Shown here: one piece after another, positions 1 to 42,284 of the stretch
Position numbering within the stretch: position 1 is the first letter of the stretch
Layout: each line of letters begins with the position of its first letter
Assembly (NCBI GenBank): GCA_900617105.1
Contig: UYFQ01000075.1
Location: 1 to 42,284 of the forward strand
Length of the DNA: 42,284 bases
Direction: 5' to 3'
DNA from: Hydrurus foetidus
Taxonomy: Eukaryota
The notes under the pieces: model-generated
Databases searched by the model: none
What the model was told of the DNA's origin: nothing
Seen by the model: the letters and a program-made list of their open reading frames with translations, nothing else
Made by a program: the position numbers and the translations under genes

Positions 1-3000
1 TTCCAAATCGATTTCGTCTCGCGGGAGTAGGATATTGGCATCGAGGTCGATAGCGTTGCCATAGATGAGTTGTGCAGGTGATACTTTCATACGGTCGTTT
101 ACAGTTGAATTTAGTATTCTTTGTACGAATGGTAGTATTTCCGCGTAATTTTCCGTTGTTGCGCGTTCGTACGCGTATGCGGTGATGTGACGATTTATTT
201 CTTTGTTGATACGTTCGACGATAGCGTTTTCTTCTGAACAGTATGGTAATATTTTGTTGTGGGTTGTACCAACAATTTTCACGAACTCATCGATAATGTG
301 AGCGACGAAGTGTGGGCCATTATCTGATCGAAGTATAGATGGTGTGCCGTATCGGCCCACGTGTTCTATGAGTGCTTTGCACGCTGCTTTAGCTGTTGCA
401 TCAGGTGTAGCATAGAGTTCGACAAATCTCGAAAATGTGTCGATCATAACAAGGATGTATCCTTTATCTGGGAATGGTCCGATGAAGTCAATATTAAGAC
501 ATTCCATTGGTTTGTATGTTGATGTCGTGTACCTATATGCATTGATGGGATATTTCATAGCCGACATCTTTTGGCAACAAGGACAATTTTTTATGAATGT
601 TTTTACTGCGTCACGCATTCCCAACCATATGTTATTTGATTTTTTTAAGTTACGCAGAGTGCGTTGAACACCACCGTGTCCGACTGTAGTGTTATGACAC
701 TTTGCAATTATGTTATATTGCTCTGTCGTCATCGGTTTGTGTGTCAGAATTGCAGCTATTATTCCTGATTTAGGTAGCATTCTGTTTTTACATAGGCGAG
801 ACATTGCATCGGCAATTTCGTTTTGTTTCCCAGGGATATATCCTATCGTATATTCTAATTCTTGCAGGGCCATACGCCATCTGCTGACCATTTCGTTCTT
901 GTCTTTTTCAAGGAACGTCAGATTTTTGTGGTCTGTTAGAATAGTGAATTTACGATCTCGTAGCAGTGCGTCGAGATAGGTACAGCAATAATATAGCGCG
1001 AAGGCTTCTTTTTGTATTACTGACCATTTCAGTTGAGTCTTGGTAAGAGACTTGCTTACAAGAGCGACAAGTTGTTTTTCCCCGTCGACTTCTTGATACA
1101 AATAGCCGCCTATACCGTAATCCGAAGCATCGGTCATTAGGGTTATGGGCGCTGTATCGTGTATAAAATATAATAAAGGACTCTGTGCAATTAGATCTTT
1201 GATCTTTTGGAAAGAGTTCGCAGCGTCATCTGTCCAGATAAGCAATGATTGCTTTTTCGCTGCGTGATCGATCATTTTATGCAGTGGTGCAACCACGTTA
1301 GAGTGATTTGGTACATGATCCCGAAAATAGTTGGTGAGACCAAGAAACGATCTTAGTTCGGTCGTCTTTCTTGGCATAGGAAAGTCGGTCACACCTCTTA
1401 TTTTTTTAGAGCTCATAGTTATACCATCTTTAGATATTTGTTTACCAACATATTCAACTAATTTTACATTTAGTTTAAGCTTTGCAGCTTTTAGTGATAT
1501 GTTTTTTTCTTCGAGACGTTGAAACAATATTTCTAAACGTTCGCAGAACTCCTCAAATCCATTACCATAAACGATGATATCGTCGAGGTATACTTCACAA
1601 ATGTGATATATTAGTCCCAGAAGGACTATTGTGGCCATCATTTCTTGGAAATATGAGGGAGCTCTTTTGGGTCCGAATGGTAGTCGGGTAAAGTGGTAAA
1701 TACCCATAAAGGTGATGAACGCGGTGTACACGCGTGTACTCAGAGTCAGTGGGGCTTGGTGATAACCTGCAGTGAGGTCGATTACACCGAATGTGTCTGC
1801 CTTTTGTGAACCTAATCTTGCTAACATTTGTCTAATATTAGGAATTGGCCAGCTTGCTGACTCTGTTGCATCGTTGAGGTGACGGTAGTCAATACAGAAT
1901 CGGTATGAACCGTCTGGCTTAGACGCAAGTGTTACTTGCGAGTAGTATGATGCCTCTGATTTGACTATTATACCCTGTTCTAGCATAGTATCAACCTGTT
2001 TACGGATTTCAATTTGTTTTCGTGTAGACGTTGGTCGGGGTGCTACACGATTCCTGAATACTTTCCATTCTGGATCCCGTACGGGTAGTCCAAACGGTGG
2101 AATACGTGCAGGTTCCGGCCCGAGTTTGTTGTTGAAAAGCTTAATGTATTTGACACAGATTGCTCTTATTTTTGCTATTTGGTCAGGGGTACCATCGATG
2201 TGTATTAAATCGATGAGGTACATTTTATCCTCTGTTGGATTGTCTTGGAAAGGAGCGAAGGTATCCTTCGACTTGTAGTCAATCTCTTCGGGTCCGAAGG
2301 GTTGAACCTCCGGGAGTTCTTCACGCTCCCGGAGTAGAGCAGCAACTAGACCACGCGTTTGGGCTGGTGCCTTGGATGAGGGAGTTGGAGTAGCTAATTC
2401 CGGACTCCTGTCGGTTGTTAAACCTAAATCACTGTGTCGGGGAGGTGACAACAAAACTGCTGCCTCGACCGTAGAGTGCACAGTGAACTCATCTAAAACA
2501 AGTTGAGCCGCTGCCGCAGCTGAACCTGTGGGACACCCGCATGATGCAGTGCATGTCTTGCTTGTACAAGCACCTCGAGCCACCAGGTCGTCTTGCCATC
2601 GACTGTCTGCGTCTGAGGGTTTTATCCCCTCCTGGCTAGTTATAACCAGAGGTATGTTGTGTGTGTTTTTATTTTGTTGCGTTGTGTCAGTGTAGGTGAC
2701 GACATGTTCAGGTTCTGCATATAGCAGCTGTACTGGAATAGTTGTAAGAACGTCCGTTCTCGACTTTTGTAATTGTTTTGACGTCGGATGTGGAAGAAGT
2801 TCTGTTCCGATTTGATCTACATTTTGGAAGAATTCTGGAAGAATTTTTACCAGGTTGAGATCTTTTATTGTTTTTAATCCGAGGATTAAATCGACTTTGG
2901 AGTCTTCCGCAATTCGGACAGGAAGAGCGAAAGTGTATTTGAGAAAATCTTTTTTAAATGATACAACAATATCAAGCACATGTGTAGATTCAATACATTG

Positions 3001-3586
3001 ATTATTTAGACCGGAACACATCCATAAGGGAGTGTCCGTTGTGCGCAAGTGGGGTTCGCCTTGCAGGCCCCGAAGGACTCTACGGTTGACTACGTCCCCA
3101 ACTTGGCATCCGGTGTCGAGTTGTGCGAGAGCGGCCAAGTCGTTACTTGGGCTCGTATTTGTTGGAGGAGGAGGATTTCCCGGAGGTGTTGTTGTCGTCC
3201 CGGCGGTTGTCTTTGTCTTTCGCCGAGTCGCGCGACTCTTCCTTGCGGGAGTTGTCACGGTCGCGATCGTTAGCGCGGTGGTTGGGACGGTAACCGGGGA
3301 TCGGATCTGTGGTAGAGATATTGTTACTTGTAAGTAATCGTCTATGTTTTCAGGTAATATCGCTGATAGTAGTTGTGTCATGTTTGGAATTTTCTGACTG
3401 TCGTCAGAATGCAATGTATGCGCGTCAGTCAATGACAACTTACTTTTGCCTTTGTATCCGAACTCTTGGCCGGTTTTGTTGTTGACGTTTCCGCGGCTAC
3501 GGTTTGCGTCACGATCGGTGTTGCGGTCGTTGGCGTTGTTGTTGTTGCGTTCGTTATCGCGATCGTTGTTGGTACGATCCGACTTC

Positions 3587-3622
<36 letters not shown>

Positions 3623-5622
3623 TTGTTATTGTTGTGTTTGTTTTTGTTGTTGTTGTTTTGGGGTTGTTTCTCTGGACCCTTGTCGGTGGTGTCTCCTTCC
3701 GTGGGATAGATGTATGTGGACGCTCCATGATTGATGGTAGTTTTCGTCATTACCCCGTTGAGGTAGACGTTTGGCACGAAGTGAGGGTGGCCGATTCGGC
3801 GGAAATCGGCTGACTCCGGTGACTGTGACCACGTGGTGTGTGTGTTGTTACAGTGTGTGTTCATGAAGAGTGTACACGTGTAACGATTGTGGCCGACCAC
3901 CCCACACGTGTGGCATGTGTTGGTGGAGCGACTGAGGCCGTTGTGTTCGTAGTCTTGTGAACGTGAGAACATGCTTTTGTATTGGGACTGCGGCACGTAC
4001 TCGTTGGGTGGTGTGTCGGCCTGTTCCCTTAGGGTGAGTTTTGTTTTGAAGTGGTATAACAATCCACCCATGTTTTGTGCGTCCTCAACTGTTCGGCGGG
4101 ATTTCTGTAAACAGATGTTGAGGCGCTGAATCATGTCGGGGATGTTATCCTTCTTTTTCCCTTTGATGTATTTTTTGGTTTGGGCCATGAAGTTGTCGGT
4201 GAATTTGTTGTTGATGGGTAGCTTCTTGTAGAAGATTTTACACATGTCATCATGTGTTGTTGAGTCAATCAGAGAATATTCGCTGTAGTGTCCCAAGATG
4301 ATGTCTCGGAACTGCGCGATTGAGGCGTCCTCGAGGGATTCGTCTTGCCAGCAAAATTCGAATTGGAAATTTTTTAAAGATAAATCCAATTCGAATGTTG
4401 TCAGCGTACGTTTGTTATCGTAGTAGATTTTTTTAAGATCTTCTGCGATTTCCTGAAGGGTGAGTGTCCCCGAGGGGAGTTCGGGCCAGGCTTTACACTC
4501 AGCTCTGGTGTAACCGGTTTCCTTCATGTGTTTGACTAACCGATCTTGGATCGATAGTCTCGCCTCTTTCTCAATGACTTCGTCCCATTTGGATTTAAAT
4601 CCCGGGCGATATGCCTGTTGGTAGAAAAGGCGTGCTGCCTTATCCATTCCACCAAACAGGGCTTTTCGGTCCAGGAAGAAAACCTCTCTCATATTAATGA
4701 GTGAGGTGGATATTTCTCGGGCTTCCTTTTGGGGGTCGCGGGACTCGAAGACGAGATCTGTGTCATCTTGTTTGCGTTTTCGAATAGGTTTTTCAGCTGT
4801 CGGTTTAGACGCGACTGATGTTACCTTTGCTTTTGCTGATGATGTAGATGAGGATGATGATGATTTGTCTTGTTTGGTAGCCCTTGCGGGCTTCTTCTTC
4901 GCCAGAGGCTTGATAGCCAATGGTTTAGATTTTTTAGACTTGACGACAGGGAGTTCGACAGCGTCTGAGTTTGACTTGTCGTCGTCGTTGTCGTCTTCCT
5001 CGTTGTCGTCGTTGTCTTCATCATCATCCTCGCCGTTGTCGTCGGCGTCGTCATTGGTGACGTCGTCGTCGGCGTCGTCAGTGTCGCTGTTGTCGTCATC
5101 GTCCTCGTCCTCCTCATCATCGTCGTCGTCGTCGTCCTCCTCAGACGAGGAGTTGTCGTTCTTTTCCTCCTTCTCCTCTTGCGACTGTTTAACGTCTTGG
5201 TTGTTGTTGTCGTCATCAAGAGGAGTTGGTGGGGGTGACTCGACTGACTGATAGGGGCGTTGGTTTGTGTCGACGGATGCGACGAGGTCCCTCATTTCTT
5301 CCTCGTCAGCGCCAACTTTGTCTGCCCATTCTTGCAGCTTAGCAATGCGTTCGCGTTCTGCGATGCGCATTTTATTTGCTTCGCGCTTGGTTATCTTGCC
5401 GCGAGCGGCTTCGTCTTGAAGACGTGTTGGGGTATCTCCGACTCGGATGGCTTCCTTAGCCAGAGCCGCAGTGGATTTTTCGACATTGCGGAGGCGTTCC
5501 CGCTCCGCTGCTGCGTGTTTTTACCTCGCAGTTTGCGGAAGCTGGCGCTGGTCGGATGGGTTTGAACCCTCAGAGATAGCATCGCTAGAGCTCCGTTTGT
5601 TGGCATTTATGCCTTTGGCCAT
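1..5622 (-). CDS. Gypsy-1 single-frame Gag-Pol polyprotein, open off the left edge; in-frame TAA at 5521-5523 after codon 33, open again from ATG 5370
   Basis: All motifs checked share one frame: zinc knuckle CHTCGVVGHNRYTC (~3874-3915), protease LDTG (3109-3120), RT YLDD (1579-1590), RNase H DASDYGIGG (~1105-1131), integrase RSDNGPHF (~307-330). It is absent from the ORF track, consistent with no stop before position 1. Confidence 0.9.
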
Positions 5623-6174
5623 CTTGAAAAGTCGTCGGCAGTTGGATCGATGGCGCTTCCTGTCTTGGTCCGCAACGGAACTCGGACGCTATGCTAAATG
5701 ATCAGTAGGATGTGCTCCTTCGAAAGAGCTGTTGGTGGTATGTTGGCGGCTGTAAAAAGTGAAGATTAGATTAAGATGCTTTCCCCCCGATTTCGGGAGA
5801 AAATTGATGGAAAGTTGAATCGGACGGTGGAGCTCGCAGGCCACGAAGTTGGGCGCGACCTCTGTAGGCTTTCGTTTACGAACGAATTTGATGTTTTCAC
5901 TTGCTTACAAGTTACTCGCTTGCGTTGTCCTTCAAGTTTTGAATGGAGCAACGATTTAAGTCGGCAAAAGTCGTCGAGACGAACTTTTTACTGGAAGCGT
6001 TTCAGAGGCTGTCGCTTTGACAGAGCCTTTGTAGTGTGTTTTTATGATGTTTTCACTTATAAAAGTTACTCGCTTGGTGCGGCACGCCTTTGAAAAGGAC
6101 GCTGCCGACTTTTTTTGGATGTTTTTGGAAGCTGGTCTCGTAGAGAGATCCTAGCTGATTCCAAATACCGGTAT

Positions 6175-6390
6175 TGTGGTCTCACTAAGACTCTGGGCTG
6201 GAACGGAGGGCTGCTGGAACGCGGGCGAAGGAAAGGGGGTGATGGGGCTGGTGCTATGGATAGCAAAGTGGTTAGCTTACAGATAAACACAGCAGGTATC
6301 ATGGCAATGAATCGTGTGGATCGGATCGTCCTCGATCCGATCCGAACGTACGCCTGTACCCGTACCGCCCGTACGGGTGTACGGGTCACA
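6175..6390 (-). repeat. Gypsy-1 5' LTR (216 bp)
   Basis: Sense strand begins TGTGACC and ends GACCACA. Shares GTAAGCTAACCA with the Gypsy-2 LTR. Two hairpins at 6318-6343 and 6358-6378. Partner LTR is outside the window. Confidence 0.75.
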
Positions 6391-6498
6391 GTGATTACTG
6401 ACTACACCAAGCTTATTTCACGAGCCCTGACCGAGAGATCTTCAACAGCTGTACCGCGAGAGGCTGTACGTGACTGCAAAACCGAAGATCCGTCAATA
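6391..6498 (+). repeat. Copia 5' LTR, last 108 bp only
   Basis: Direct repeat of 19619-19726; ends TCAATA versus TCAACA in the 3' LTR. Confidence 0.92.
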
Positions 6499-6523
6499 TA
6501 ATTGACTGGTACAGGCATTCTCA

Positions 6524-8562
6524 ATGCCTCCCAAACGCGCCGTTGAAGCCCTTAAGAATACAGAAGAGTGTACGCTTCAATACGGCAAACACAGCAACAT
6601 TATCAAATGGAGAGAACATATGCAGACGATAGTTACCGAACTATACGGAATAGTGGGCATGTTCTTCACAACTAACGAGAGATACGAACTTCCGAAAGCA
6701 TCTCACAGGGATTACCCTTCAGATTCGTCATCGGAAAGTTCGGAATACGATACCGAAGAAGAGGAATCGGACGCCACAGATACCGCAGTTCCTGCGATCA
6801 CTGCAGCTGAAGCCGCGGCTAAAGCAGCGAGGGCCGCGGTGCGATTGGCAAGCAAAGAGAGCAAACGCAAGGCGTCAGAGAAATCGCGTGCAAAATTCAG
6901 AGAGGATGCGTTCATCCAGAGGAAGCGGGACCTCAAGACCCAACGCGAGAACGAACGTACGGTCTTCCCCATGATGTGGAAGCGTATGTCACTCGTGTCA
7001 CAGAGTAGAGTAAGGGAGGAAGAGGAATATAAGACGGCATACCTCACGCTGGACTGCGTCCTCCTGTGGACACTCATCCGGAGGACCCACCTGACACACA
7101 TGTTCGGTGCAGACGAGGCACTACAAGAATACAATCAGCACGAACAGGAGAATAAGTATTCGTCAATGAGACAAGGTGAGAGAGAACACCTAGTCACATT
7201 CAAGAATCGATTTGATGAACAGGTGGAGGCGAACTTTACCGTTGGGATCGCAGCGGTGTCCGATTCCAAACGTGCACTTGACTTCCTGGGCAAGCTAGAC
7301 CCCCAGAGGTTCAAAATCATCATGGACGACATGAAGCACGACGCACTCAGACGCAAACCGGATGCGTTCCCCAGCACACTAGCCTTAGCATTCCACATAT
7401 CAAACCAATGGAATGAAGGGAACGCTCCCGCACACACACCCACACCAGCACCCGCTGGGGTGAACGCAGCGTACGTTACCGAAGAAGTACACGTCACCAT
7501 GGCCAAGGATACCGAGAAGAAAGCAGGGAAAGCCGGAGGGGGAAGTAAGAAATCTTTGGATGATGTCGAATGCTTCAAATGCGAGAAGAAAGGTCACTAC
7601 GCGAGGAACTGCCCTCTTAGAAAACCGTCAGTGGAAAAAGTCCACGTCACGGTGACGGAGTCAGACAGTGAATACGAAGGGGAGACTAGCGAATGGGGTA
7701 TAGCGCTTGTCGCTACAGAAGAGATGTGCTGCTTTACAAAATTCGACGTGCTACTAGACAATGAGGCATCATTGAACATATTCAGTAACATGGACCTACT
7801 AACCGACGTGAGGAAGTCAAACAAGACTGTGAGAGTGAGTGGCATTGAGCAGGGTGGTGGCGTGTCTGTTGATCGAGAGGGGAACTTCGGAGAATTCGGA
7901 ACGGTCTATTACAGCGGAGCAGCATCGGCGAACATCCTATCGTTTGCAGCGCAAGTGGATTCGGGAGCAGAGATAAGATACGATCATCTAGTGGACTGCT
8001 TTACCCTGCAGCCGAAGGGGAGCGAGAAGACGTATCGATTCGGGAGGAAGCGCATCGTAGGCAGCGAAGGGAGATTTTACTCCTGTGATTGGAGAGAAGT
8101 CGATCATGATCGAGCATTAGTAACGACCGTGACTGACAATCTGAAAGCGTTCACTAAACGCGAAGTGGAGCAAGCGAGGCGAGCTCGGGAGATGCTCGCG
8201 AGAATTGGATTCCCAACCGTAGAGCAAGCTATGTCGATCATCAACTGCGGAAGCAATTTCGATGTGACAGCAAGGGACTTTCAGATTGCCGACGCAATAT
8301 GGGGGAAGGACATAGCCTCCCTGAAAGAAAAAACTACTAAGCGAGCGACTGCCACCGCCGATATAGCCGTCAGCACGAAACTTCTACAAAGGGATCAGGT
8401 GTTGTCGATCGACATTATGTATTTAGATAAATTAGCTATTCTGATTGGAGTGGCTACTCCACTGGGACTAACTATTGCATACAGTCTAAACGCAGCTGAT
8501 CTAAAGAAGCCAGCTAGGACGGCTGGCCATGTGAAGACCGGAATCAACCACTTTATCGGAGT
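6524..8562 (+). CDS. Copia Gag-Pol 5' part (Gag, zinc knuckle, protease, integrase N-part)
   Basis: CFKCEKKGHYARNC knuckle, LLDNEAS protease-like motif, SIDIMY first integrase Asp. The ORF-track tail past 8562 is read-through into the Gypsy-2 LTR. Confidence 0.92.
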
Positions 8563-8688
8563 TGTGGTCGTCTGGGGTTCTAGGTTAGCCACATGCACTA
8601 ATCCTATACCTTCTCCACTAAGTTTCATAGTAAGCTAACCAGCATTCTCCCTCGCACCATCTTTAGCCTAGATTCCTTCTAGGCCACA
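8563..8688 (+). repeat. Gypsy-2 5' LTR
   Basis: TGTGG...CCACA; identical to 16373-16498. Confidence 0.97.
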
Positions 8689-8787
8689 GTGACGTCACTC
8701 AGCCGTTTAAATTCCCTCTTTCCGTCTTCTATAACCCTACCCCATTTGTCATTTCCATCTCCTTGAGATAACTGCTCGAATCCCGCC

Positions 8788-11022
8788 GTGGAGGACTTCC
8801 AGAAAGTTCCTCTCCTCAGAGATCGTCTTTATCTTGAAGAGCTTCGTCTTATCAACGAAGAACTCCAGTTTCGGAGAGATACAACTCCCGTAGAAGGAGA
8901 GGCAGCAGTCGTTTCGACTGACCAAAATCTCCCAACTTTTGTTGAAACTTCGATTCCTCAACCGAGAAGTCGTTCCAGAGTCGTAAGACCTGTGCTCCTT
9001 CGGGAAGACGCGAGTTCATCGCGATTTGCCACCTCTAATCTCCATTCTACTCCTTCCACACGCCAAACACAACCCCGATTCAATTCGGCGACTTCAGCTT
9101 TTAAGCCTAGGAGACCGACTTCCAAGTCGAGAACATCCTTCCCAGGGCCTCCTGCGACTTTAGTCAGCAGTGAAACAGGGTTTGCAACTCAAACCTTGCG
9201 GAATTTGTTGCTGGACAACGATTTCCTGACAGAATTCCCAGTTTCAGTTTCAGAAACTGCGCCGAGAAAAAACTCGCACTTTCGTTCGGAGTTAAACTCC
9301 AACTTAAGCCTAAGCTCTAAGCCTAGCGAAAAATACATCCGGGGATTATATCCTGTTGAAGCACCTCCCGCTTCTAACGAGGTGCCGGAAGACATTTTTC
9401 CTTACGAAAAAGCTCCGAAAATAAATCCTACATTACGAGTAGGAAATCTCGATAGAATTGCTCCTTTGACAAGGAGAAAGTCGAAGATAGCCCTCCTGCG
9501 TGCTGCAGCGACTCCGCTCTCAGCAGGGAGAACACCCTTGACCGGGCCAAAAGTCTTGAAACCCAATTTGAAATTGGTGACAAAATCACCCTCCATCATG
9601 GAAGACATAGTTGACCAGTTTGACTCAAGTCCTGGTGACTTTGGCGAAGAGTTAGGTGAGATAGTTGATTCTAACTATGCCGAACTCTCTGACAACGAAC
9701 TCGTTGACGAATTTCTCGCCGAACCCGGTGATTTACAGCAATCATCGGAGACAAATCCATCGCAAATACCACTTTTAAGTGCTATAACTGATGTGACAAC
9801 CCAAGTTTTACCTGTGCCTACTATTACTAGAGCACAACAACTTGAGAACCTTTTTAATACACGCATGTCTGGTGGTATTAACTTGAATAGTGCACTTGTT
9901 GTACTCGACTCATTCGAAATTTCGGGTGAGTTAGCCTTGAAATTTCAAACTCAAGCGAATGCTTTTGCAAATAACTTTACTTTAAGTCAAGTAATAGTTT
10001 ATCCTGCAACTGAGATCATACAATTTGCTTTTGCAAGTGATCCCAAATTTACTATTCTTACGAAAGATAAATTTGCGACGTGGCTTGAACACGTTACAGT
10101 CGCTCAGGCTGCCCAAATTGTCACAAAGTACTTTGGTGCTAAATCAGACATTGGTAGAACACTAGTAGAGAATTTTTCTCAAATTCCTATTAGATTCAAC
10201 TTCTCTCATCGAGCACTTGAAAGACAAACATTTGTCGCGATGAAATCGTTAACACACGATTACTCCATCGTTGAACCAATCACTCAGGCACAGCATGCTG
10301 CCTTGATAATTACGATTGAGAAAAAGTTAAAACCGGATAGTCAATTGAGAACTGATTATTTCGAGAAAAAGAAAGCAAATCCTACTCAAGGTGAAACTTG
10401 GGAGGATGCTTACACACGCTTGGTAGCGTGCATTGCGTCCGTTCGCGAACTAAACGAGCATATTGCACGATATGGCAGTATGACCTCAGACAATGAACTT
10501 GCTCTGAGGTCTTCTGATTACTCAGTTGTCAAATCCACACCCAATGTGATGATGCCTTCGGTGCCGTTGATCCATCAACGATCCTTCGCAGCTTCAGTTT
10601 ATGAAAAACAAGCTGGTGTTCCTAATACACAATCCCAGCCCTTAATATCGGCTGGAGTAACAAAGCGAGCTTCTTTGAAGGGATTCCAATGTCGTTCATG
10701 CGGCCATACTACACACAAAGTAGCGGCCTGTCCAGTCCTGTTTTATACAGATGCCAACAATGAGCTCCATCTGGAATGGAAGGATTCACCTATGGGTAAG
10801 GAGTGGGCGCGTCATAACTATACAACTCACTCCTTGGACATAGCGCTTCCAGGCCATGAAGATCAGTATCTGAACAGACTTCAGAGCGAGTTTCATGTGT
10901 CCATGTTGAACCCTCCCCGGAATGACTTCAAGCGAACACGTTTCGACAATAACATTCCGGGTGGTCAACAACAGCCGGGCTCATCGAATCCTCAACAACC
11001 GATGTCGAATTCGCAGAAATAA
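8788..11022 (+). CDS. Gypsy-2 Gag (GTG at 8788; first ATG at 9598)
   Basis: 744-aa ORF after the 5' LTR with CRSCGHTTHKVAAC zinc knuckle near the C-terminus. Confidence 0.8.
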   Translation: MEDFQKVPLLRDRLYLEELRLINEELQFRRDTTPVEGEAAVVSTDQNLPTFVETSIPQPRSRSRVVRPVLLREDASSSRFATSNLHSTPSTRQTQPRFNSATSAFKPRRPTSKSRTSFPGPPATLVSSETGFATQTLRNLLLDNDFLTEFPVSVSETAPRKNSHFRSELNSNLSLSSKPSEKYIRGLYPVEAPPASNEVPEDIFPYEKAPKINPTLRVGNLDRIAPLTRRKSKIALLRAAATPLSAGRTPLTGPKVLKPNLKLVTKSPSIMEDIVDQFDSSPGDFGEELGEIVDSNYAELSDNELVDEFLAEPGDLQQSSETNPSQIPLLSAITDVTTQVLPVPTITRAQQLENLFNTRMSGGINLNSALVVLDSFEISGELALKFQTQANAFANNFTLSQVIVYPATEIIQFAFASDPKFTILTKDKFATWLEHVTVAQAAQIVTKYFGAKSDIGRTLVENFSQIPIRFNFSHRALERQTFVAMKSLTHDYSIVEPITQAQHAALIITIEKKLKPDSQLRTDYFEKKKANPTQGETWEDAYTRLVACIASVRELNEHIARYGSMTSDNELALRSSDYSVVKSTPNVMMPSVPLIHQRSFAASVYEKQAGVPNTQSQPLISAGVTKRASLKGFQCRSCGHTTHKVAACPVLFYTDANNELHLEWKDSPMGKEWARHNYTTHSLDIALPGHEDQYLNRLQSEFHVSMLNPPRNDFKRTRFDNNIPGGQQQPGSSNPQQPMSNSQK

Positions 11023-14000
11023 AAAACAAGGTAACAATGAAACCTTGGCATCCTTACTAGCTGCAGTAGTATCGAAAATTAACACTGATACTAATTTCCT
11101 TTCTTCTTGGATTTTCATTAATCAGCCAAGTTGCAAGCAGCTCAGAGCCAGGGGATATACCAACCCCCGCCATCCTCCTTGCCATGAGATGGTTATGGGA
11201 GATGTCCTGCTAGACACGGGTAGTCTACCAGGCGACTTTATTAGTCAGGAATTAGTTCATAAGTTACATGGAGATAGTTTTGTATATACATCTCCTTCAC
11301 CTTTAACTATATGTTCTGGTCTCGATAACACTTGTTATGTCAGAGACCAGGTTGTCGATATTGGGTTATCATTTGTGACCCATTCCCTTGTAATTAAAAC
11401 GATATACTTAACAGTACGAATTATACCAAATTCGATTGATTTAATTTTGGGCCGACAAACTTTGAAAAAATTAGATTTTTTTCACTGACCCCATTTGAAA
11501 TGGGTATGCCAAATATTGTTAATTCAAGGAAAAGACTTGAATTACTGTATACTGTGAAAGGTATTTGTCCTGAATTTGACAGTTCGGAGAAGAATAAGAG
11601 ATGCCCTCATTCTGGTGTAGGTACCTTGCCTGTTCACTCTTCAAACACAGACAGAGTCGCTAACTGTCTGGATGTTGAATGTGCATGTCAGTCTAGCGCC
11701 GCTGGGGCACAAACTATGCGCGACGACTGTAACTATGTATCAACCCATAGTGGTGTTGCTTGTACTCGTACATACACCCTCGCACACATAAGTGAACAGC
11801 CAGATAGTACTGTGACAGCTACTAGAGTGGAAACACCTAGTGGTATCGTAATCTCTTGTGACGAGATAGATAATGAGAAAGCTGATACTTTTTCACCATT
11901 CGTTCCTGAACAGACTCAGTCAGATACCTTGCCTGTAAAGCTTGAGGAATATTTATCGTTGATTACTTTTGAAGGCACACAAAGCCAGATAGAAGATATG
12001 AAACGCCTCTGTCGCAAGTATTCAGATATCTTCAGTGATAAACTGCCAGCTAAACCTGCGAAACTACCGCCATTTCAAATCAATGCAGATAAAAAATTAT
12101 GGCACAGTCCTAAAAATAGGACTGCCGTTCGTCTACAATCCGTACGAAAAGAACGTGAAATTAAACGGTTCATCGATGAGATGTTACTGTCAGGGATCAT
12201 CGAGAAATCGGATGCAGTGTACTATTCCCATCCTGTAATTGTACAAAAAACAGCGGAATTATTCAGATTTTGTATTGACTATCGACTTCTGAATAAGTGC
12301 ACTGAGGCATCTAGTTGGCCTCTCCCGAATATTCGTGCCCTCCTCGAAAGAGTCGGCCATTACAAGCCAGATACATTCGGGGTTATGGATTTAACCTCAG
12401 GCTACCATCAAGCACCTATGGACGCTGCATCCAAAGTCTTGACTGCGTTTATTTGTTATTCTGGCGTATACCAATTCACCAGGCTCCCCTTCGGTCCTCG
12501 AAGAGCTCCATCTTACTTCCAAGAGATGATGACAACTGTTGTCCTTAATGGACTCATTTACACTAAATGTGAGATGTACTTAGATGATTGTATCGTCTTT
12601 GCCCGAGGACACGATGAATTCCTGGAGAGACTAGAACGAGTCTTTCGACGTTTTCGTTGTTTTGGTCTATTCCTAAAAGCAAAAAAATGCAGATTTGGTA
12701 TGAAACAAATCGACTATGTGGGTCGCCAAATCTCTTCTCAAGGCATTTCTATGTCGAAAGAAAAGATTGAGTCGGTATTAAATTTTCCGAAACCCAAATC
12801 ACTAACTGCTTTACGCAGCTTTTTAGGATTGGCGAACTATTTCAGAAGTTTCGTACCGTTTCATTCAGATATAGTTAAACCTCTGCAACAAATGATTGAT
12901 CCCAAAGGGAAAAAGAAATCTTCAATTCTTTGGACCCCCGAAGCTGAAAAAGCTTTCGTTAAAATTCGAGAACAAGTTGCTCGTTGCCCATTACTACACT
13001 TTATGGATGAAGAATCACCAGTAGAGTTATATACTGACGCTTCCGATTATGGAATTGGAGGTGTACTTTTCCAAAGAGTAAATGGTGACTTAAAACCTAT
13101 TTCATTTGTCAGTAAGTCGCTAAGCGCAACACAATGTAAATGGTCGACAATCCAAAAGGAAGCTTACGCAATATATCATTGCTGTAAACAATTGGACTCT
13201 CTTATAAGAGATAGAAAATTTAAAATTTTTACTGACCATAAGAATTTAACATTCTTAATGTCTACACTCCAGCTGTTTGTCCGACCGGTGGACATGGGCA
13301 CTGTCCGACCGGTCGGACAGTGCTGACATATGACATTTTTGACTCCTTACATGATCCTATAGCTTAGAAATCGATTGCAATTAGTTGCCTAGCATTAAAT
13401 TGACATGCTTGATGATATTGCTTGATGATATTGGTCGAACAGAAAAAAACTAGTTATAGTGAAATAATATGTTTAATACGTTCTTTTAGTGCTCATGCAG
13501 GACACTGATACATCAAACTTTTAGGAGCAAAAAAGGAATATACAACTGCAAGAACCATTGAAGAAGGGTCGAGTAGGTAAGATGCCATGAAGGCGACATC
13601 AAGGGCTGATAATATCATTTGTTTGAAGACAGGTGGAGTACGCAGGAAAATCGACACAATAAAAATATTGAGGGATACCCAAAACAGAGACTTTACACCA
13701 ATATGCAATATCAAAACGATGATTCATAACACATTTGATGCTCTGGAACGATACAAGTGACTGCATCGGAGAGATTCGCTTGAAATAGCCGTCCGAGGTG
13801 AAAATCTGAAATCGGTCCAAAATCGGTCGATGGGGCAAACGCTGACAGCTATAACTTCACTACAAAAGTGGCGCTTTCTCAGGCATCGATGGGAAACTGT
13901 TGAGGAAGTCCTGATCAATAGAAGCATGAAAATTTCCTAGTCAGAATGGGCGTTGCTCAGAAATTATCAGGCTGCATTTCCTTGTGAAAATCGATTTGCA

Positions 14001-16093
14001 TTCTGGATTGCAATCCTCACCATATTCCAATCGCTCCGCTATTACACCAATATTCCGTGATCTCCTTTTGGCGTTTGAACTTGACCATCATTTATGACAC
14101 AAAATAATATGATCTGCAGGCACAGAAGTGAAGAAATTTCAGAGAAAATTTTGACAGAAGATTTCAGCCACAAATCGCCAAACCAAAGGAGCAATCAGCT
14201 ATTGCGCTGTCGCCACATAACCAAAATTCGAGGCGATTGTGGAGGGGAAACTGTTCATTGCACTCTAGTCAAACAGTCGACGTCGAAAATGATTCCAACA
14301 CCTTAGAGATTCGCTTGGAAGTTAGACCATCGCCAAATTTGGCGAACCAGCGAGTTGATCCACTGCCCCAGTCCATATCTCAGCAAAGAAGTCTCCGTTT
14401 GAAGAGGTGAAGTTATGCCTTTGATCGGCACATTTGGAGCTATCGAATTCGCCGAGATACTGCTTCAAACTCATCGAATTGAGAAATATTTCATATGGGT
14501 CAAAATTGTCCTACCGGTCGGACAAACGTCCTACCGGGTGGACGGCCTGGAGGATAGACATTAAGTCAAGACCCATCTACGATGGTGAACCGTTGGTCTA
14601 TAGCGCTACAAGAATTAGACTACTCAATTGAATACATTGCTGGTTCAAATAACGATCTGGCTGATGCAATGTCACGCTTGTGCCCCAACCTAACTCCTGT
14701 TCCTACAGTGCCAGATAGTGTTCCTTCAGACATTGCTGAAGCAGTTGTATCAGCTTTACACAAAATTATACCCGTGTCTGATTCACAACTTGAAAAAATA
14801 GAGATGTCTCATAACTCCATGATGGGACATGGAGGAGTACTACGAACCATTGAACACCTAAAAGGGTTAGAAGAACAATGGCTTGACATGGAACATCATG
14901 TCAAAGACTTCATTCAAAACTGTGCCTGCTGCCAGAAGATGAGTGTCATCAAAATTCCTGTGCATATTCACAGATATACAACGTCAACATACAGACCGTT
15001 CGATACCGTAAATATTGATTACGTTGGTCCATTTCCGGATAACGGTTATGTGTTAGTAATGATATGTTCATTCACTCGATGGACAGAACTTTACTGGTGT
15101 TCGAACAACACAGCACATTCGGCTTGCGAATGCCTTCTCCAATTTTTTGGCAGGTTTGGAGCACCAAGCATGATCAGGTCAGATCGTGGTCCTCATTTTA
15201 TGAATGAGATTGTAAAAGAATTTTTAATTCGAACAAATACTCCACACAACTTAACGTTGGCATATTCTAAACAAGAGAATGCAATAGTGGAAAGAATTAA
15301 CAAAGAAGTAAATCGCCATTTAAGAGCATTTACTTTCGATTCAGCAAGTCTAGAATCATATAAACTTTGCCTGCCTTTTGTGCAGAGAATCATAAACAGC
15401 GCGGTACACTCAAGTACTGGTGCTTCTCCAGCAAGCTTGCTGTTCGGAAATCAGCTTAATCTCAATAGAGGTATTCTGACTAAATTTCCATATAATCCTG
15501 AGTTACCGATCTCAGCATCTAAAATTATAGCTAATATGCTATTAATACAACAACAGCTCAACAACATGGCTGAAACTCACTTAAAGAGCGCTGACAAATT
15601 ACATGTCGCTGTCAATCTAACTCCAGAAACAATTTTTGAAATTGATTCTTATGTTCTTGCTCTTAACCCTAAAGGGCCAGAGACAAGATTACACTGTAAA
15701 TAGCTTGGCCCATTCAAAGTAGTAACCTTTGATAAAAGTCAGTACACTATACTGAACTTGATCACTCACAAAACCCGTGATGTTCATGCTAGTCAATTAA
15801 AGCTATTTAAATTTGATCCGACTAAAAGATCCCCGACTGATACAGCACGTCGTGATTACATGGAATTCTTCATTGAAGACATTCTTTCTCATGTTGGAAA
15901 TAAGTCTAAACCATCCACAATGAGATTCCATGTTAAGTGGTTGAATTACGACTCAACTCATAATACGTGGGAACCTTGGCAATCCCTACGCACGACAGAT
16001 CAATTACATAAATATCTTCGTGATAACAACATGGTTAAAACAATACCGAAACAATTTCGAGATAAACCTCCATTTGACATGGAGCACCCGTGA
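11023..16093 (+). pseudogene. Gypsy-2 Pol (PR, RT, RNase H, IN, chromodomain), disrupted
   Basis: LLDTGS, YLDD, DASDYGIGG, RSDRGPHF, and chromodomain FFIEDILSH...VKWLNY...NTWEP. Frameshifts near 11020 and 11480, transposon insertion 13259-14560, TAG at 15701-15703 where Gypsy-3 has Trp (W-x-GP motif). Confidence 0.92.
13259..14560. mobile_element. Non-autonomous TIR DNA transposon (1302 bp) inserted at TTAA in Gypsy-2 RNase H
   Basis: TTAA at 13255-13258 and 14561-14564. TIRs TGTCTACACTCCAG / CTGGAGGATAGACA (12 of 14 match). Subterminal TGTCCGACCGGT repeats. Removal restores TFLSQDPSTMVNRW in frame. Confidence 0.9.
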
Positions 16094-16096
16094 ATT

Positions 16097-16184
16097 TTAT
16101 CTATGAAGATTCCTCCTATTTTTTTTAATCAGTTCACAACTGATTTTTTTTTGGAGGTTTAGTTAGTAAGAATCTGACATAATC
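16097..16184 (+). other. ENE-like structured RNA element in the Gypsy-2 3' UTR
   Basis: CCUCC/GGAGG stem, U8 and U7 internal loop, AAUCAGUU-CAC-AACUGAUU upper stem; homologous to 39371-39456. Confidence 0.7.
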
Positions 16185-16372
16185 AATCACGGGTAGCCCA
16201 CACTTCACCTTCTTTTTGACAAAATTGTTTTTATACTTCATGTTTTATTTCAACTGCCCTTCCTTCTGAAGCGCTAGACTAGTTTCACAAAATTTAGTTT
16301 TAGTACCCTTCATTTCGAAGCGCTAGACTAGTCAAACATTTGCTAAATCTTTTTTGAAATAAGTAGGGGTAG

Positions 16373-16498
16373 TGTGGTCGTCTGGGGTTCTAGGTTAGCC
16401 ACATGCACTAATCCTATACCTTCTCCACTAAGTTTCATAGTAAGCTAACCAGCATTCTCCCTCGCACCATCTTTAGCCTAGATTCCTTCTAGGCCACA
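16373..16498 (+). repeat. Gypsy-2 3' LTR
   Basis: Identical to 8563-8688; follows AAGTAGGGGTAG. Confidence 0.97.
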
Positions 16499-16502
16499 GA
16501 GT

Positions 16503-19317
16503 CCTCGCGGCGCAGAATTTCAGGACGTCCGTGATTATGAGCGACGGAGAGGGGGCAGTGGTCAGCCTTGTCGATGAGCTTGGGAAACTTGGAGTGGAGG
16601 TGGACATCAGCGGAGCCGGTGGACACGTCGCTAGGATTGAAAGAAAGATCAGGATTGTTAAAGAGAGAGTACGCTGTCATGTAGCGTACCACCTTCCGTT
16701 TGTACTGTCAACCGTGGGTATCGCGATGCTCGTACTGTACTGTATATCTAGGTTAAACTATGAACCAACCGGACTGCGGAAACGGGGCCCCAGCCCCCGG
16801 GAGGCGTTTATAGGTCGGAAGCCAGAGGGTAAGAGGGATTTTCGCTGCTCTTTCGGAGACTATGCACAGTGTACTGTCACTAACACAGACTCAGGCATGG
16901 AGAGCAGAACAGAAGACTGTGTGGTGATGCTGCCCCTCGGGAACCGCACCGGGTCGGTGCGAATGTTGTCTCTCAAAACGGGCAGACTAGTCAATCGAGA
17001 TCAGTTCCGCATACTGCCGATGCCGGAGTCGGTCATTAAACGCCTTAACGAGCTTGCGCTCGCTGACGGAAGAATGAAGGGCAAGGGGGAGATATACACC
17101 AAACCTACATCGTACGAACAGGACAGCGGGGCTAAGTCCGATCTCCCCGACACGATCGACAGCCTGGTTAATAACGGGGTCGATCCTGCAATACTGTCAC
17201 TGGATATACACGACGACGAGTCTGACATCATTGACACTCTCAATGAGGAACAGTATGACAATGGGGGTGAGTACGGACGCGGACAGCAAAGTGACGATGC
17301 GGCGGGGAACGATTCAGATCTGCATGGTGAGACCGCTGAGTACCAAGAATTAGAAATACGGGAGCAGACACACGGCTATGACCATGAGATGGATAGCTTG
17401 GTAGATGACACGAACCGCATGCGTGCCGGACCGAGAGACTACGACGAGAAGGGGCTGGACGGCATCGACTCGAGCGGGGTGCCAGCCGACTACACAGCGA
17501 GCGGCGGCGCGGACCACGACGGCGGAGACCCGAGGGACGCATTAGACCGGACAGAGAGATTGCTAGCAGCACCGAGAGTTCCACTGGAAAGGGGAGTAAA
17601 CAGACACGAGCTGATGGATTTTTTCAGGGCGAAGAGTGGGACAGCACTGTTAACTCGCAGCTACGAGGGGGACGGCGCAGAGTGGGGTGACTACGTATTC
17701 AACATATCGGTCAACGAGGCGCTACGCACCAGGGGTGACGCGGCGGTGAGTGTCATACAGAAAGAGCTCCAGCAAATGATAGACAAGAAGGTGTGGGAAC
17801 CGGTGTGTGTGAAGGGACTGACGATGGAAGAGAAACATAGGATCATCAGGTCGAGTATGTTCCTGAAAGAGAAGTTCCTAGCGAGCGGAGACTTTGAGAA
17901 ACTGAAAGCGCGACTTGTCGCGGGAGGTAACCAACAAGATCGCAACCTATATGATGACTTATCTGCACCCACAGTGGCCACCAGCTCGGTGTTCACGCTG
18001 CTGAGCATAGCGGGACATGAGGCGCGGAGGATCACAGTGATTGATATCGGCGGAGCGTTCCTGAACGCGGACATGACAACCGGGCTCGCGGTGCACATGC
18101 GATTGGATAGGAATATGACGAGCATTATGACACGGCTGTCTCCGCGGTACTCGCAGTTCGTGGACCATAAGGGGTGTGTCGTGGTGAGGCTTGACAACGC
18201 CCTGTATGGGTGTGTGGAGTCGGCAGCCCTGTGGTACGAGAACCTGCGAGAAGGACTGTCACGGATGGGATATGTACCGAACGCGCATGACATGTGTGTC
18301 TTCAACAAGAACGACGAGTACGGGGTGCAGTACACCATTGCTGTGCACGTAGATGACCTCATGATCACCAGTGTCAACGGGGCGATGATCGAGGCGGTCG
18401 CGACTGGACTGATAGAAAGGTATGGTGATATCACCAGAAAGGATGGCCCTATAGTGAACTACCTAGGTATGGTATTCAACCTATCAATCGCAGGTGTCGC
18501 CAGGGTATCGATGACCGGGTATGTCGAGGACATGATGAAGGAAAGCGGGACGATAGGGGGTGCGAGGACACCGGCCACCGAGGGACTATTCGACACGAGA
18601 GATGATGCCGTACCGGCGAGCGAAGAGGACCGAATCAGATTCCACCGCCTTGTGGCCAAGGGTCTGTACCTCGGGAAGCGCGCGAGGCCCGACTGCATGA
18701 CCGCCTTGGCATTCTTGGCGACCCGAGTGACCAGATGCACAGCGGACGATCTGGTGAAGCTCGAGCGACTGCTCAAGTATATCAATGCGACGAAGGACAG
18801 AGGGATAGTTTTCGCGCCGGGGAAACAGGGGATCGATGTCAGTTTGCTGATAGATGCAGCGTACGGTGTGCACCCTGATGGCAAGTCCCACACCGGGAGT
18901 TGTGTGGTAGTGGGAGAGTTGGGTGCGGTACACTCGAAGTCGGCGAAGCAGCAGATTGTGACGAAGTCCAGTACGGAGGCAGAGCTGGTTGCTCTTTCCG
19001 ATTCAACTAACCAAGCATTACACATGAGACAATTTATCATAGGGCAAGGACATGCGTGCGGGCCGGTGACAGTATACCAGGATAACATGTCTTGCATGGC
19101 GCTCATTGAGAGAGGGCGGTCAGCGGCGGAGCGCACGCGGCACATAGCGATCAAGTACTTCTGGCTCAAGGAGCGGGTGGACCAAGGAGAAGCGAGAGTG
19201 CGCCACCTTGGAACTAAGCACATGTACGCCAACCTTCTGACCAAGCCGCTGCAGGGGGCACAGTTCAAGTCAGAGAGGCAGGCACTCACCGGATGGGACC
19301 AAGAGATAGTAGTTTAG
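16503..19317 (+). CDS. Copia Gag-Pol 3' part (integrase core, RT, RNase H)
   Basis: Removing Gypsy-2 and one GAGT restores HFIGVLAAQNFRTSVIMSDGEG and a 4854-nt ORF (1617 aa). Motifs KARLVAGG, DIGGAFL, ALYG, HVDD, IDAAYG, SSTEAE, YQDN. Confidence 0.95.
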
Positions 19318-19385
19318 ACAATGTTTAATTAAAGACTTATGCGTGATGCGTGAATAGGAGTTGATTGTGATGCGGCATAGGGGTG

Positions 19386-19448
19386 TGTTGGAGATATCTG
19401 TATTTATGACACGAACACAATCAGTGTACTTATGCACGTACGGATTAT

Positions 19449-19485
<37 letters not shown>

Positions 19486-19726
19486 ACATACGTGAAGACG
19501 ATGGATGGATCCGTGCATCGTCACTAAATACTTCAACTGTAGTGTTTGATTGATTGTTGTTGTTGCGTTGGAAGGGACTCGGGGACTTCAGCAGGGATGA
19601 AGCACAGTCAATTAACAAGTGATTACTGACTACACCAAGCTTATTTCACGAGCCCTGACCGAGAGATCTTCAACAGCTGTACCGCGAGAGGCTGTACGTG
19701 ACTGCAAAACCGAAGATCCGTCAACA
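19386..19726 (+). repeat. Copia 3' LTR (341 bp) containing a (TG)16 microsatellite at 19451-19482
   Basis: TGTTG...CAACA termini, preceded by a purine tract; last 108 bp repeated at 6391-6498. Confidence 0.88.
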
Positions 19727-37866: not shown

Positions 37867-38145
37867 TTTTCGGATTATGGTTGAGATAATTTATGGCAAG
37901 TTGCAAGAAATACTCGAAGTATCTGTCGCAGAGAAATCCAGAAACTTGTTCAGATGGTTCATTTGAATCTTCCACACGGGGGAGCAGTACGCACTTCCGA
38001 GCACTAAAAGAACACTGCGGACAGAGAGAGACGAGAGAGGGCTGAAGATATTGACTAGCGTCCGTACAGTACACTAACTACTGAGCGTACGTACGATACA
38101 TCCAGTTCAAACTACAGTACAACCATGGGGCTATAAAAGATAAAT

Positions 38146-38904: not shown

Positions 38905-39016
38905 GATCCCGAATTTTGAATTTTTTAATTAAAATTACGGTTCAGGTTCTAGTCTCGAATCTGAAAATGTAAAAAGTCTCGGATCCCGGATTCCGGATCC
39001 AGGTCCGGAAACCTTG

Positions 39017-39278
39017 TGTGGTCTGGGGCGGGGCCTAGGACGTTGGAGCTGATGTTGGTGGATGGTTGGTGCAAGCGGCGGGCAAGGAAAGCGAGAGTCG
39101 GTGGAATAAACTTGTGTTAGTATCTTACAGTTGAGTATATACAAGTGATGTGTACGCTAAAGTGCATTCACGTCATATGTGGAACTAAGACCTAAAAGTG
39201 GAATCTGGGCGTAATATACCTATTGTACCTAGTTAACCTAGACACATTGTATCCCCTTAGGAATGCAATAAGGCTACA
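39017..39278 (-). repeat. Gypsy-3 3' LTR; distal end uncertain (39017 or 39178)
   Basis: Starts right after the purine tract. Two candidate CCACA ends. 39017-39143 shares GCGGGC(G)AAGGAAAG and GTTAG..CTTACAG with the Gypsy-1 LTR. Confidence 0.55.
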
Positions 39279-39370
39279 CTACCCCTTCTTCCTTTTTTGA
39301 AGATCTTTGATATGATATACAAAAAAAATGAAAAGATATGTAAAACATAAATATGAGATATAGATGAAAC

Positions 39371-39456
39371 GATTATGTCAGACTTTTACTGACTAAACTC
39401 TCCAAAAAAAGACCCGTAGGTAAAAAAAAAAGAAGGAGAGAATCCTCATGGATAAA
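39371..39456 (-). other. ENE-like structured RNA element in the Gypsy-3 3' UTR
   Basis: CUCUCC/GGAGAG stem, U10 and CU7 internal loop, ACC-UACG-GGU upper hairpin; flanks conserved with 16097-16184. Confidence 0.7.
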
Positions 39457-39473
39457 GTTTCAAATATATTAAG

Positions 39474-42284
39474 TCATCGATGTTGCTTATTGATTAATTT
39501 TATCATGTTATTATGACGTAAATAATCATGAAGTTTATCAACATCACGAAGACTTGAGTAAGGTTCCCAAGTGTTTTTGTCTGAAGGGTAATTTAACCAT
39601 TTGACTAAAAACTCTATGTGGGTACGTTGGTGTTTGCCACGATGATCAAGAATGTCTTCAACAAAGTATTCCATGTGATCACGTCGTGCAACATCCAACG
39701 GATTTGTGATTGAAGGGTCAAATAGAAAAGGTTTCATTGCAGAAACATGAAACTCTGAAGTTTTCTGAGTGACTAGATCATAAAGTGTGTAACGCGAATT
39801 TTCGCCACTAACGACTTTTAATGGGCCTCTCCAATGCGTGTGAAGACGTGAAGGAGGAGTTCCATCGCGATAGTGCACTAAGACATAAGAGTCTTTTGGA
39901 TACTCTACATGCTGAAAAATTTGAGACTGACTTTGATGAAGCAAATCTGTGCGAAGAAGTTCTTTAGCAGAAGCTTTAAGAAGACTGTCTTGCGTTTTGA
40001 GTAGATTGCTCATACGCTTTGACAAAGGTGTGTCATCAGTTTTCTCTCAGCAGGAGGTAAAAAAATACCTCTATCGAGTTTGAGTACATTTCCGAAAAGA
40101 AGTTGAGAAGATGATATTTTTAAACGGTCACTGTGATTAGAATTTAAGATTCTTTGCACAAATGGAAGTGACGTTTTATAATCTTCTAATGTGACATTAT
40201 CGAATGTTAATGCACGAAGATGTCTATTTACTTCTTTATTCATGCGCTCAACAATAGCATTTTCTTCTTTAGAGTATGCTAAAGTAAGACAATGTTGAGT
40301 GCCAATATGAGTTAGAAACTCTCTAATAACTTCGGAAATGAAGTGTGGCCCATTATCAGAACGGAGTTGGAGAGGTGCGCCGAAACGACCGAAGTGTTGC
40401 AAGAGGCATTTAGCTGTTGAAAGTGCTGTAGCATCTTCTGTATGAAACAGTTCAACCCATCTTGTGAACGTATCGATAATTACGAGTACGTACCCGCCGT
40501 CTGGAAACGGTCCTATGAAGTCTATGTTAAGGCATTCCATAGGTGTGTAAGTAGAACCATGAGCATGTATTGGTATCTTTAACATACTCATTTTCTGACA
40601 ACACGAACAGTGATCTATGAACCACCTGACATGCTGACGCATATATTGCCATACTATCTTTTTGTCAATGAGACGCTTTAAAGTGCGCTCAAGGCCGAAA
40701 TGCCCAACTTGTGAATTGTGTACTTTACTGATTGTATTGTACTGATCACGTGTTAGTTTGAATTTTTCAATAGTATTAGCAGACATGATTGCATCAGGAG
40801 TATATTCCTGAGGGAAATCAACCATGTTATTGCGACAGAGTCGAGACATCGAATCAGCTATATCATTGTTAGCACCAGGTATATATTCAATTTTAAATGA
40901 ATATTCGGATAAGGCCATAAACCACCGAACAATCATTGGATTTGAATTATCCTTGATGTATAACAAGTTACGATGATCTGTACGCAATGTGAACGTACGA
41001 TCACGTAATAGCGATTTTAAATACGTGCACGAATAAAAGATAGCATATGCTTCTTTTTGTATAACAGCCCAACGAAGCTGAGCTTTGTTAAGTGATTTAC
41101 TGACAAATGCTATGGGCGTCTCTTGACCGTCAACTAGCTGGAAAAGATAGGCACCTACACCATAGTCCGATGCATCAGTGTGCAAGTAAATCGGATCGGT
41201 GTCACTTAAAAAGTGCATAGTCGTGCATTTTGAAATCTCGGATTTGATCAAATTGAATGCTCTGAGAGCTTCTATTGTCCAAGTTATTTTCTTATACTTA
41301 TTATAGTTAAGAAGCAACTGATGTAACGGGTATACAACAGTAGAAGCGTTTCTAACAAAGTCGTGAAAATAATTAACCAATCCTAAAAAACTCTTGAGTT
41401 GTTTAGATAGTACTGGTTTAGGAAAATCTAAGACAGTCCGTATTTTTTCTTGTGACATTCTAAGTCCATCTGCAGATAGAACTTTGCCAACATAATCTAT
41501 TTCGGCATAGCCTAGATAACACTTATTCGGTTTAAGGAATATTTTGTGTTTTCTAAAACGTTCAAACACAAGACGAAGTCTAGAAATAAGTTCGTCAATG
41601 TCTTTACCGAAAACATTGCAATCATCTATGTACATTTCGCATATAGAGTATATCAGCCCTGCTAACACAACAGTCGTCATGATCTGTTGGAAATAGGAGG
41701 GTGCTTGTTTAGGCCCAAAGGGTAAACGAGTGAATTGATATACTCCGCAGAAAAGTATGAATGCAGTATAAGCACGTGCAGCAAGTGTAAGTGGTGCTTG
41801 ATGGTAACCTTGAGTGAGGTCAAGTACAGCAAACACTTTTGCTTTATGTGCACCTATTCTACGCAACATCTCACCGATGTGTGGAATAGGATGTGATTTA
41901 TCTTCGGTACAATTGTTGAGATTCCGAAAATCAATACACATGCGCTTAGTTCCATCAGATTTTGGAACTAGTAAAACTTGGCTATAATAAGCCGCGTTTG
42001 ATTTTTCAACAATATTTTGTTTTCAAGTTTTTTAATTTGACTGAGAATGTCAGCTTGATCAACTGTTGATTTAGACCATGGAGGTTGTCTATTTTTAGGA
42101 ACTCTCCATTGGTCGTCATTGACATGAAAGTCAAACGGTGGAATATCAGCAGGAGTGGCCGAAAGTTCACTGCTAAATATATCCTTGAATTCGTGTACTA
42201 GTAACCGAAGTTTATTTTTCTGATCTTCATCACCTGCTAAGTTTATTAGCGAGAGTGGGTCAGTATCAGGAAATTCATCTATCA
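39474..42284 (-). pseudogene. Gypsy-3 Pol (RT, RNase H, IN, chromodomain) with frameshifts near 42025 and 40020
   Basis: YIDD, DASDYGVG, RSDNGPHF, HWRGP, chromodomain YFVEDILDH...VKWLNY...NTWEP. Confidence 0.92.

Follow-up and report, generated by a model that had tools for sequence, protein, structure and literature searches.

Nested retrotransposons in the window

The window, by which we mean the whole 42,284-nt stretch of Hydrurus foetidus DNA that was analysed, contains nested retrotransposons alongside ordinary genes (Table 1), and no tRNA genes were found in it. One of these genes is of the light-harvesting type (PF00504), which speaks for an alga and, from its appearance, probably for a photosynthetic stramenopile. 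Gypsy-1, Gypsy-2 and Gypsy-3 are assigned to Ty3/gypsy by the order RT, RNase H (RH), integrase (IN), Gypsy-2 being complete and the other two partial; LTRs with TG..CA ends, a target site duplication (TSD) and a polypurine tract (PPT) are found as well. The acidic motifs of RT and RNase H are present in all three elements. The RTs of the other two gypsy elements are 53–54% identical to that of Gypsy-2, whose top PDB match is the Ty3 RT. The chromodomain PF00385 occurs in Gypsy-2, Gypsy-3 and most homologues, the end of Gypsy-1 lying off the window; chromodomains arose separately beyond the chromovirus clades too, according to the part of PMC5348765 consulted. The RT clade is large: of 5559 candidates, 1959 proteins fall at E ≤ 0.001. 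A quick tree, built of unnamed relatives only and without reference chromoviruses, places two of them (L003 and L004) on long branches.

Table 1. Positions of the elements and sites discussed, in window coordinates.
Feature	Position	Strand	Remarks
Gypsy-1 gag-pol frame	1..5520	-	continues past window edge
Gypsy-1 12-bp palindrome	6164..6175	-	AATACCGGTATT; PBS position
Gypsy-1 5′ LTR	6175..6390	-	216 bp, TGTG..CACA; inserted in copia 5′ LTR
copia element	6391-19726		holds Gypsy-2; its 5′ LTR hit by the Gypsy-1 insertion
Gypsy-2 (complete)	8563-16498	+
Gypsy-2 5′ LTR	8563..8688	+	126 bp, TGTGG..CCACA
Palindrome with predicted flanking helix	8679..8709	+	predicted pairing of U5 GGC 8682-8684 with leader GCC 8702-8704
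Gypsy-2 12-bp palindrome	8688..8699	+	AGTGACGTCACT; PBS position; base 1 is the LTR terminal A
Gypsy-2 gag and putative protease region	8767..11488	+	two overlapping frames; identity inferred from position
Gypsy-2 RT and RNase H	11440..13258	+	PF00078, PF17917, PF17919; catalytic motifs present
Non-coding DNA element	13259..14560		TIRs and TTAA duplication; interrupts Gypsy-2 pol
Gypsy-2 RNase H end, integrase, chromodomain	14558..16092	+	PF00665, PF17921, PF00385
Three-stem element of Gypsy-2	16099..16180	+	directly 3′ of pol stop
Gypsy-2 3′ LTR	16373-16498	+	polypurine tract 16356-16372 just upstream
Light-harvesting gene	37264-37890		PF00504
hAT transposase dimerisation fragment	38404-38928	-	PF05699; adjoins Gypsy-3 3′ end
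Gypsy-3	39017..42022	-	RT-RH-IN, chromodomain, three-stem element, PPT; 5′ end off-window
Gypsy-3 3′ LTR	39017-39278	-
Three-stem element of Gypsy-3	~39375-39455	-

The boundary of the Gypsy-2 5′ LTR is secure, since the paired LTRs are identical (0 of 126 positions differ) and the element is flanked by a GAGT duplication at 8559–8562 and 16499–16502. The empty site of the insertion is present in contigs from other runs, and the metagenomes that hold Gypsy-2 are mostly from freshwater and sediment. Upstream of 8578 other copies differ from the window copy (8563–8577), and the 126-bp LTR may therefore have a shortened or replaced U3 start. A Pfam search of the gag and putative protease region gave no match; the frame that carries integrase and chromodomain holds one stop (15701–15703). 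The non-coding element, which sits in the RNase H, has TGT..ACA terminal inverted repeats and subterminal palindromic repeats, one of them 26 bp long (13298–13323). In the copia element, the 5′ LTR terminates in TA, not CA (6493–6510), U5 and leader form a small hairpin GTCAAT/ATTGAC (6493–6510) that is not a palindrome of the gypsy kind, and a TGG lies 7 nt 3′ of that LTR, beyond the usual distance.

The three-stem element that follows pol is ~85–100 nt long and is also present in nine relatives (L013, L027, L032, L033, L035, L036, L037, L041 and L051). It consists of a small hairpin ATCC-ATGA-GGAT, a variable stem with double changes at 6/6 predicted pairs, and a nearly invariant hairpin GTCAG-7 nt-CTGAC; the last two stems are RNAalifold predictions, and the first was identified by eye. 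At the gathering score it matched no Rfam family, the three matches obtained being at chance level (E 1.2–2.7), and no complementarity to the palindromes was found. The element is possibly a packaging, export or dimer signal.

A palindrome in register with the end of the LTR

The first-pass annotation had described two perfect 12-bp palindromes, each starting on the terminal A of the LTR, where a primer-binding site (PBS) should lie in Gypsy-2 and Gypsy-1. Both were confirmed. The LTR boundary of Gypsy-1 rests on terminal repeats and on relatives, as its 3′ LTR is off-window. Palindromes of at least 12 bp number 24 in the window against ~11 expected from base composition. At one fixed centre the chance of a 12-bp palindrome is 2.6e-4, and two out of two in register would thus, by arithmetic, be expected at ~7e-8.

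Relatives for comparison, with RT identities of 44–54%, were picked by protein similarity and not by motif. One of them (L003, RT 44%) is a circular contig of a viral collection and has the palindrome; the further ones are retrotransposon contigs mis-binned in bacterial assemblies. Among 14 contigs with a gag start, seven reach the 5′ junction and all seven carry the palindrome; L038–L040, L045, L047, L049 and L050 start inside gag or are chimeric and were dropped. Two chromodomain contigs that read through the LTR into gag (L037 and L051) have it too. One more junction (L087) came from a pattern search that was biased toward the motif and mostly returned background, with 128 matches against 106 in a reversed control. 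When seven regions from this search were followed, L087 was an LTR junction, five were not, and L084 was unclear and not counted; L078 is not an LTR junction. Two distant contigs (L004 and L005, 27% RT identity) are without a definable LTR end and were left unscored, and L006 is chimeric, with bacterial DNA 5′ of the RT. A metagenome scan with a single RT gave no element, its two loci being weak matches over 60 residues, and two of three viral-contig scans gave nothing. Several GTDB bacterial assemblies among G001–G010 are rich in gypsy contigs of eukaryotic origin (G002 gave 47 matches), which is ascribed to binning contamination. For contigs with a single LTR, the start was taken from PPT-TG and the end from the terminal motif beside the palindrome, so that Gypsy-2 has the only fully independent boundary. 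The 3′ LTRs of L052 and L053 share a terminal GGCCACA. Three LTRs (L014:374, L037:726 and L087:412) end in TA, not CA, with the register of the palindrome kept.

The comparison with related families, which the first-pass annotation had proposed, bore the feature out: the palindrome is fixed in position and its letters covary. At all 13 readable 5′ junctions, Gypsy-1 and Gypsy-2 included, a perfect palindrome runs from the terminal A of the LTR; it is exactly 12 bp long in 12 of them and reaches 14 in L037. None of four 3′ junctions is palindromic, two of these (Gypsy-3 and L053) having been scored by eye at 1/6 and 2/6 pairs. Most sites begin ATA directly 3′ of the LTR, and eight distinct central tetramers occur: TTAA (five times), TCGA (twice), ACGT, CCGG, ATAT, TATA, GTAC and GATC. 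In the first 10 junctions 60/60 cells are paired, with double changes at 4/6 pairs. Shuffles, whose figures are inflated by kinship as are those of permutation, paired as highly in 0/500 cases, gave as high a pair count in 6/500 and never reached the covariation score; the number of further pair types did not exceed that of shuffles (153/500). When the register was slid in the same 10 junctions, pairing fell to 32–60%. Alignable DNA is rare among the junction regions, with four pairs showing matches of at least 35 nt. L044 and L051, 81% identical over 147 nt, differ in their centres and are both still palindromic. The palindrome is a real, clade-wide, covarying feature of these gypsy elements.

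Neither a tRNA-type site at the LTR edge nor a Tf1-type site was found. No tRNA-type TGG lies within 8 nt of the LTR at any of the 13 junctions, as had been claimed for the two window elements. These elements were likewise said to have no complement to the site inside their own LTR, and the longest found for the 20 nt after the LTR are 4 and 5 nt, at shuffle level. In a set of 10, in which the LTRs of L043, L044 and L048 may be incomplete at the 5′ side, the longest complement is 4–7 nt, also at shuffle level. A complement of at least 10 nt in the 5′ LTR is the rule for calling self-primers in the portion of PMC6317226 consulted. When G:U pairs are admitted, pairing with the own LTR is predicted to be weaker than the homodimer in 13/13; L046, with a 9-bp wobble duplex near the 5′ end of the LTR (−9.3 against −5.6 when shuffled), is the sole case clearly above shuffle. 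A second arm 12–41 nt downstream, of the type described for GalEa elements, reaches at best 5–7/11 in the 13 sequences, again at shuffle level. Position, exact register, covariation, and the absence of a TGG site and of an LTR complement are thus matters of observation.

Pairing around the site and a candidate priming route

The end of U5 is predicted to pair with the leader just past the palindrome, leaving a bulge or small loop at the base that precedes the terminal A. This flank helix scores −3.9 kcal/mol for cognate against −2.1 for re-paired flanks (permutation p 0.00025, inflated by kinship); shuffled flanks score −2.6, and 9/300 are as low as the cognate. L041 (−0.2) and L044 (−1.8) have a weak helix. 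Related contigs match the window from ~8675 to 8704–8707 and diverge beyond, the two ends not being tied to one contig, which fits a constraint on the palindrome together with the flank helix. Taken by itself, the 12-mer forms no stable hairpin in nine of 10 cases (0 kcal/mol; Gypsy-2, −1.8). In most contexts the predicted fold is a hairpin that has a flanking stem and whose 4-nt loop is self-complementary, and folding models put the dimer 9–20 kcal/mol below two monomers. Homodimers of AU only are weak in seven of 13 (−6.8 to −7.4 kcal/mol), which counts against the priming model below. In a hairpin the four central bases would lie unpaired in the loop, so that their covariation needs either an intermolecular duplex or a copying rule.

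Judging from the sequences, we hold with moderate confidence that the 12-base self-complementary site replaces the tRNA PBS, and that the element's own RNA, in a dimer, probably primes reverse transcription. The steps would be as follows: the site would fold into a weak hairpin that the U5/leader helix closes, and two co-packaged genomes would convert it to an extended duplex of 12 bp plus 3–5 bp on each side, with a bulge or small loop before the terminal A. One strand would then be cut directly after base 12, and the RNase H domain is the probable nuclease; in Tf1, too, RNase H reportedly cleaves an RNA duplex. The cut would leave a 3′-OH U paired to the terminal A of the partner, opposite the bulge, and from this the fixed register would follow. 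The RT would copy U5-R of the partner genome. Plus-strand strong-stop DNA would later copy the primer and so end in the reverse complement of the site, and this end could pair with that of the minus strand only where the whole site, its centre too, reads the same as its reverse complement. Since the second strand transfer of the standard LTR cycle, as we infer it, would need a fully symmetric site, full palindromy would be enforced. A point mutant would form a doubly mismatched duplex whose repair could create another palindrome in a single step; this would account for the variety of central tetramers. HIV-1 RNase H leaves one ribonucleotide, and if the same held here the cDNA would end exactly in CA. 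The model needs a cut in one of two equivalent strands, an asymmetry for which we have no explanation here.

In its fullest form the proposal would be a third mode of LTR priming, in which genomes pair at a palindrome on the LTR edge and one of them, cut opposite the bulge, primes the other. A single 12-base site would then serve dimerisation, priming and the second strand transfer while repairing itself into new palindromes, and, GalEa being included, the mode would have evolved repeatedly in gypsy and copia. We put this forward tentatively, at a probability slightly below even. The first-pass annotation had also suggested a third priming mode; the priming interpretation gains from the fixed, covarying palindrome and from the missing TGG and LTR complement, and its novelty is overstated in view of the GalEa precedent, as described in the part of PMC5445492 consulted.

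The main rival to priming by the own RNA is a signal for dimerisation only. The palindrome would then act in dimerisation or packaging of the genome, through a hairpin, kissing loop and extended duplex, with priming elsewhere, and this we consider unlikely while giving it real weight. It would account for the predicted stability of the dimer and for the predicted hairpins with self-complementary loops, it predicts the central covariation too, and Ty1 PAL palindromes have been proposed to mediate dimers (PMC4974528, in part). Such a signal, however, need not be tied to the last base of the LTR or to 12 bp, yet 13/13 sites keep the register; the sequences showed no other primer site, and known DIS and PAL sites exist in addition to a PBS (PMC5445492, in part). 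Alternatively, a single RNA could fold by a 4-bp stem and the flank helix, be cut after base 12 and prime itself, with the uncut second genome as template and the second strand transfer enforcing the central symmetry. Monomer folds with the hairpin are predicted, and the logic of strand transfer would cover the central covariation as well. Against this, the 12-mer by itself lacks a stable hairpin in nine of 10 cases, and a primer stem of 4 AU pairs is a poor substrate for RT, and we regard the route as rather improbable. Of the two possibilities raised at first, annealing of two genomes or snap-back of one, plain snap-back by itself does not account for the covariation of the central four bases.

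It is very improbable that a host tRNA fragment or other small RNA is the primer and the symmetry incidental. Priming by half-tRNAs exists in copia lineages (PMC6317226 and PMC10886601, in part), and a TGG is found at +12/+13 in Gypsy-1, L044, L048 and L051; the TGG at +12, however, is the partner of the U5 CCA in the predicted flank helix and is missing there in nine of 13, and each of the eight palindromic centres would need its own self-complementary RNA (chance per centre ~0.09). Equally slight is the probability that the palindrome works on DNA, as a protein-binding site or in the pairing of single-stranded cDNA tails. The Gypsy-2 palindrome includes TGACGTCA, and Tf1 cDNA often retains a single-stranded PBS tail (PMC11042837, in part), but a binding site would conserve letters and not symmetry, the TGACGTCA core occurs in one of 13, and the primer would be left unexplained. 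The least probable source of the primer is the 5′ end of the transcript, as in Tf1. The elements are chromodomain gypsy elements with 11 internal bases in the site and an ATA start like that of Tf1, and the wobble duplex of L046 would agree with such a primer; the longest LTR complements in the set of 10 all fall short of the 10-nt rule, and the sequences appear to have largely refuted this kind of self-priming already.

Relation to known priming systems

How elements prime without a tRNA site or a Tf1-type self-primer is an open question in the papers on GalEa, Skipper and SM-Tcn1. The gypsy clade gives a precise rule, namely 12 bp tied to the last base of the LTR with any symmetric centre, and its eight natural variants make priming and dimerisation separable with a few short RNAs. 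If priming by the own RNA is true, these elements would depend on no host tRNA and would escape silencing by tRNA fragments, and they would be missed or misfiled by annotation tools in which a tRNA PBS is required.

A literature search, whose coverage left out Repbase and most subscription papers, returned no description of gypsy elements with a palindromic primer site. Repbase entries for gypsy elements of the diatom Thalassiosira are reported to note a 'self-priming' palindrome; if they do, the same feature and the same idea exist in another stramenopile. The main text of the GyDi paper, in the part consulted, holds no statement on a self-priming palindrome (PMC2806351), and 'palindrom' is absent from the main text of PMC10886601, PMC12440569, PMC5348765, PMC2864245, PMC5006619 and PMC2806351.

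The systems compared here are taken from excerpts of the papers cited. Tf1, Tj1, sushi and Tcn1 resemble the present elements in being gypsy elements, mostly with a chromodomain, whose site abuts the LTR and uses no tRNA (PMC4600332, PMC6317226, PMC11042837, PMC2864245). The Tf1 PBS starts ATAAC (PMC11042837), and Tf1-type self-priming is also treated in PMC3601003. The Tf1 group, however, primes with the 5′ end of the transcript, which is complementary to a PBS that is not palindromic, whereas no such complement is found here. The Skipper elements of dictyostelids are likewise chromodomain gypsy elements without a TGG, without an LTR complement and with priming unexplained, but a polypyrimidine tract and not a palindrome follows their LTR (PMC5006619). 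The retroviral DIS and Ty1 PAL are similar as self-complementary RNA hairpins convertible to an intermolecular duplex (PMC4974528, PMC5445492); they are separate from and additional to the tRNA PBS, whereas in the present elements the palindrome lies where the PBS should be, and a PBS was not found. Bivalve TRIMs are a further neighbouring system (PMC6934838).

Among published cases the nearest is that of the fungal GalEa copia elements, in which a 10-bp palindrome that includes the last A of the LTR replaces the PBS (PMC5445492). The two share the lack of a tRNA PBS, the inclusion of the last A and changes at paired positions, and in GalEa as well the hairpin is often larger and carries a bulge or loop at its junction with the LTR, the mechanism being left open by its authors (PMC5445492). 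The site of GalEa (CHS) has a second complementary arm 12–41 nt downstream and two dominant variants (PMC5445492). In contrast to those fungal copia elements with 10 bp and two dominant variants, the present ones are gypsy elements, by domain order and the PF00078 RT, with 12 bp and eight centres, and the second arm was not found at any of the 13 junctions. The feature is a tRNA-independent variant of the primer site with a partial published precedent in GalEa, and the mechanism proposed for it is sharply testable.
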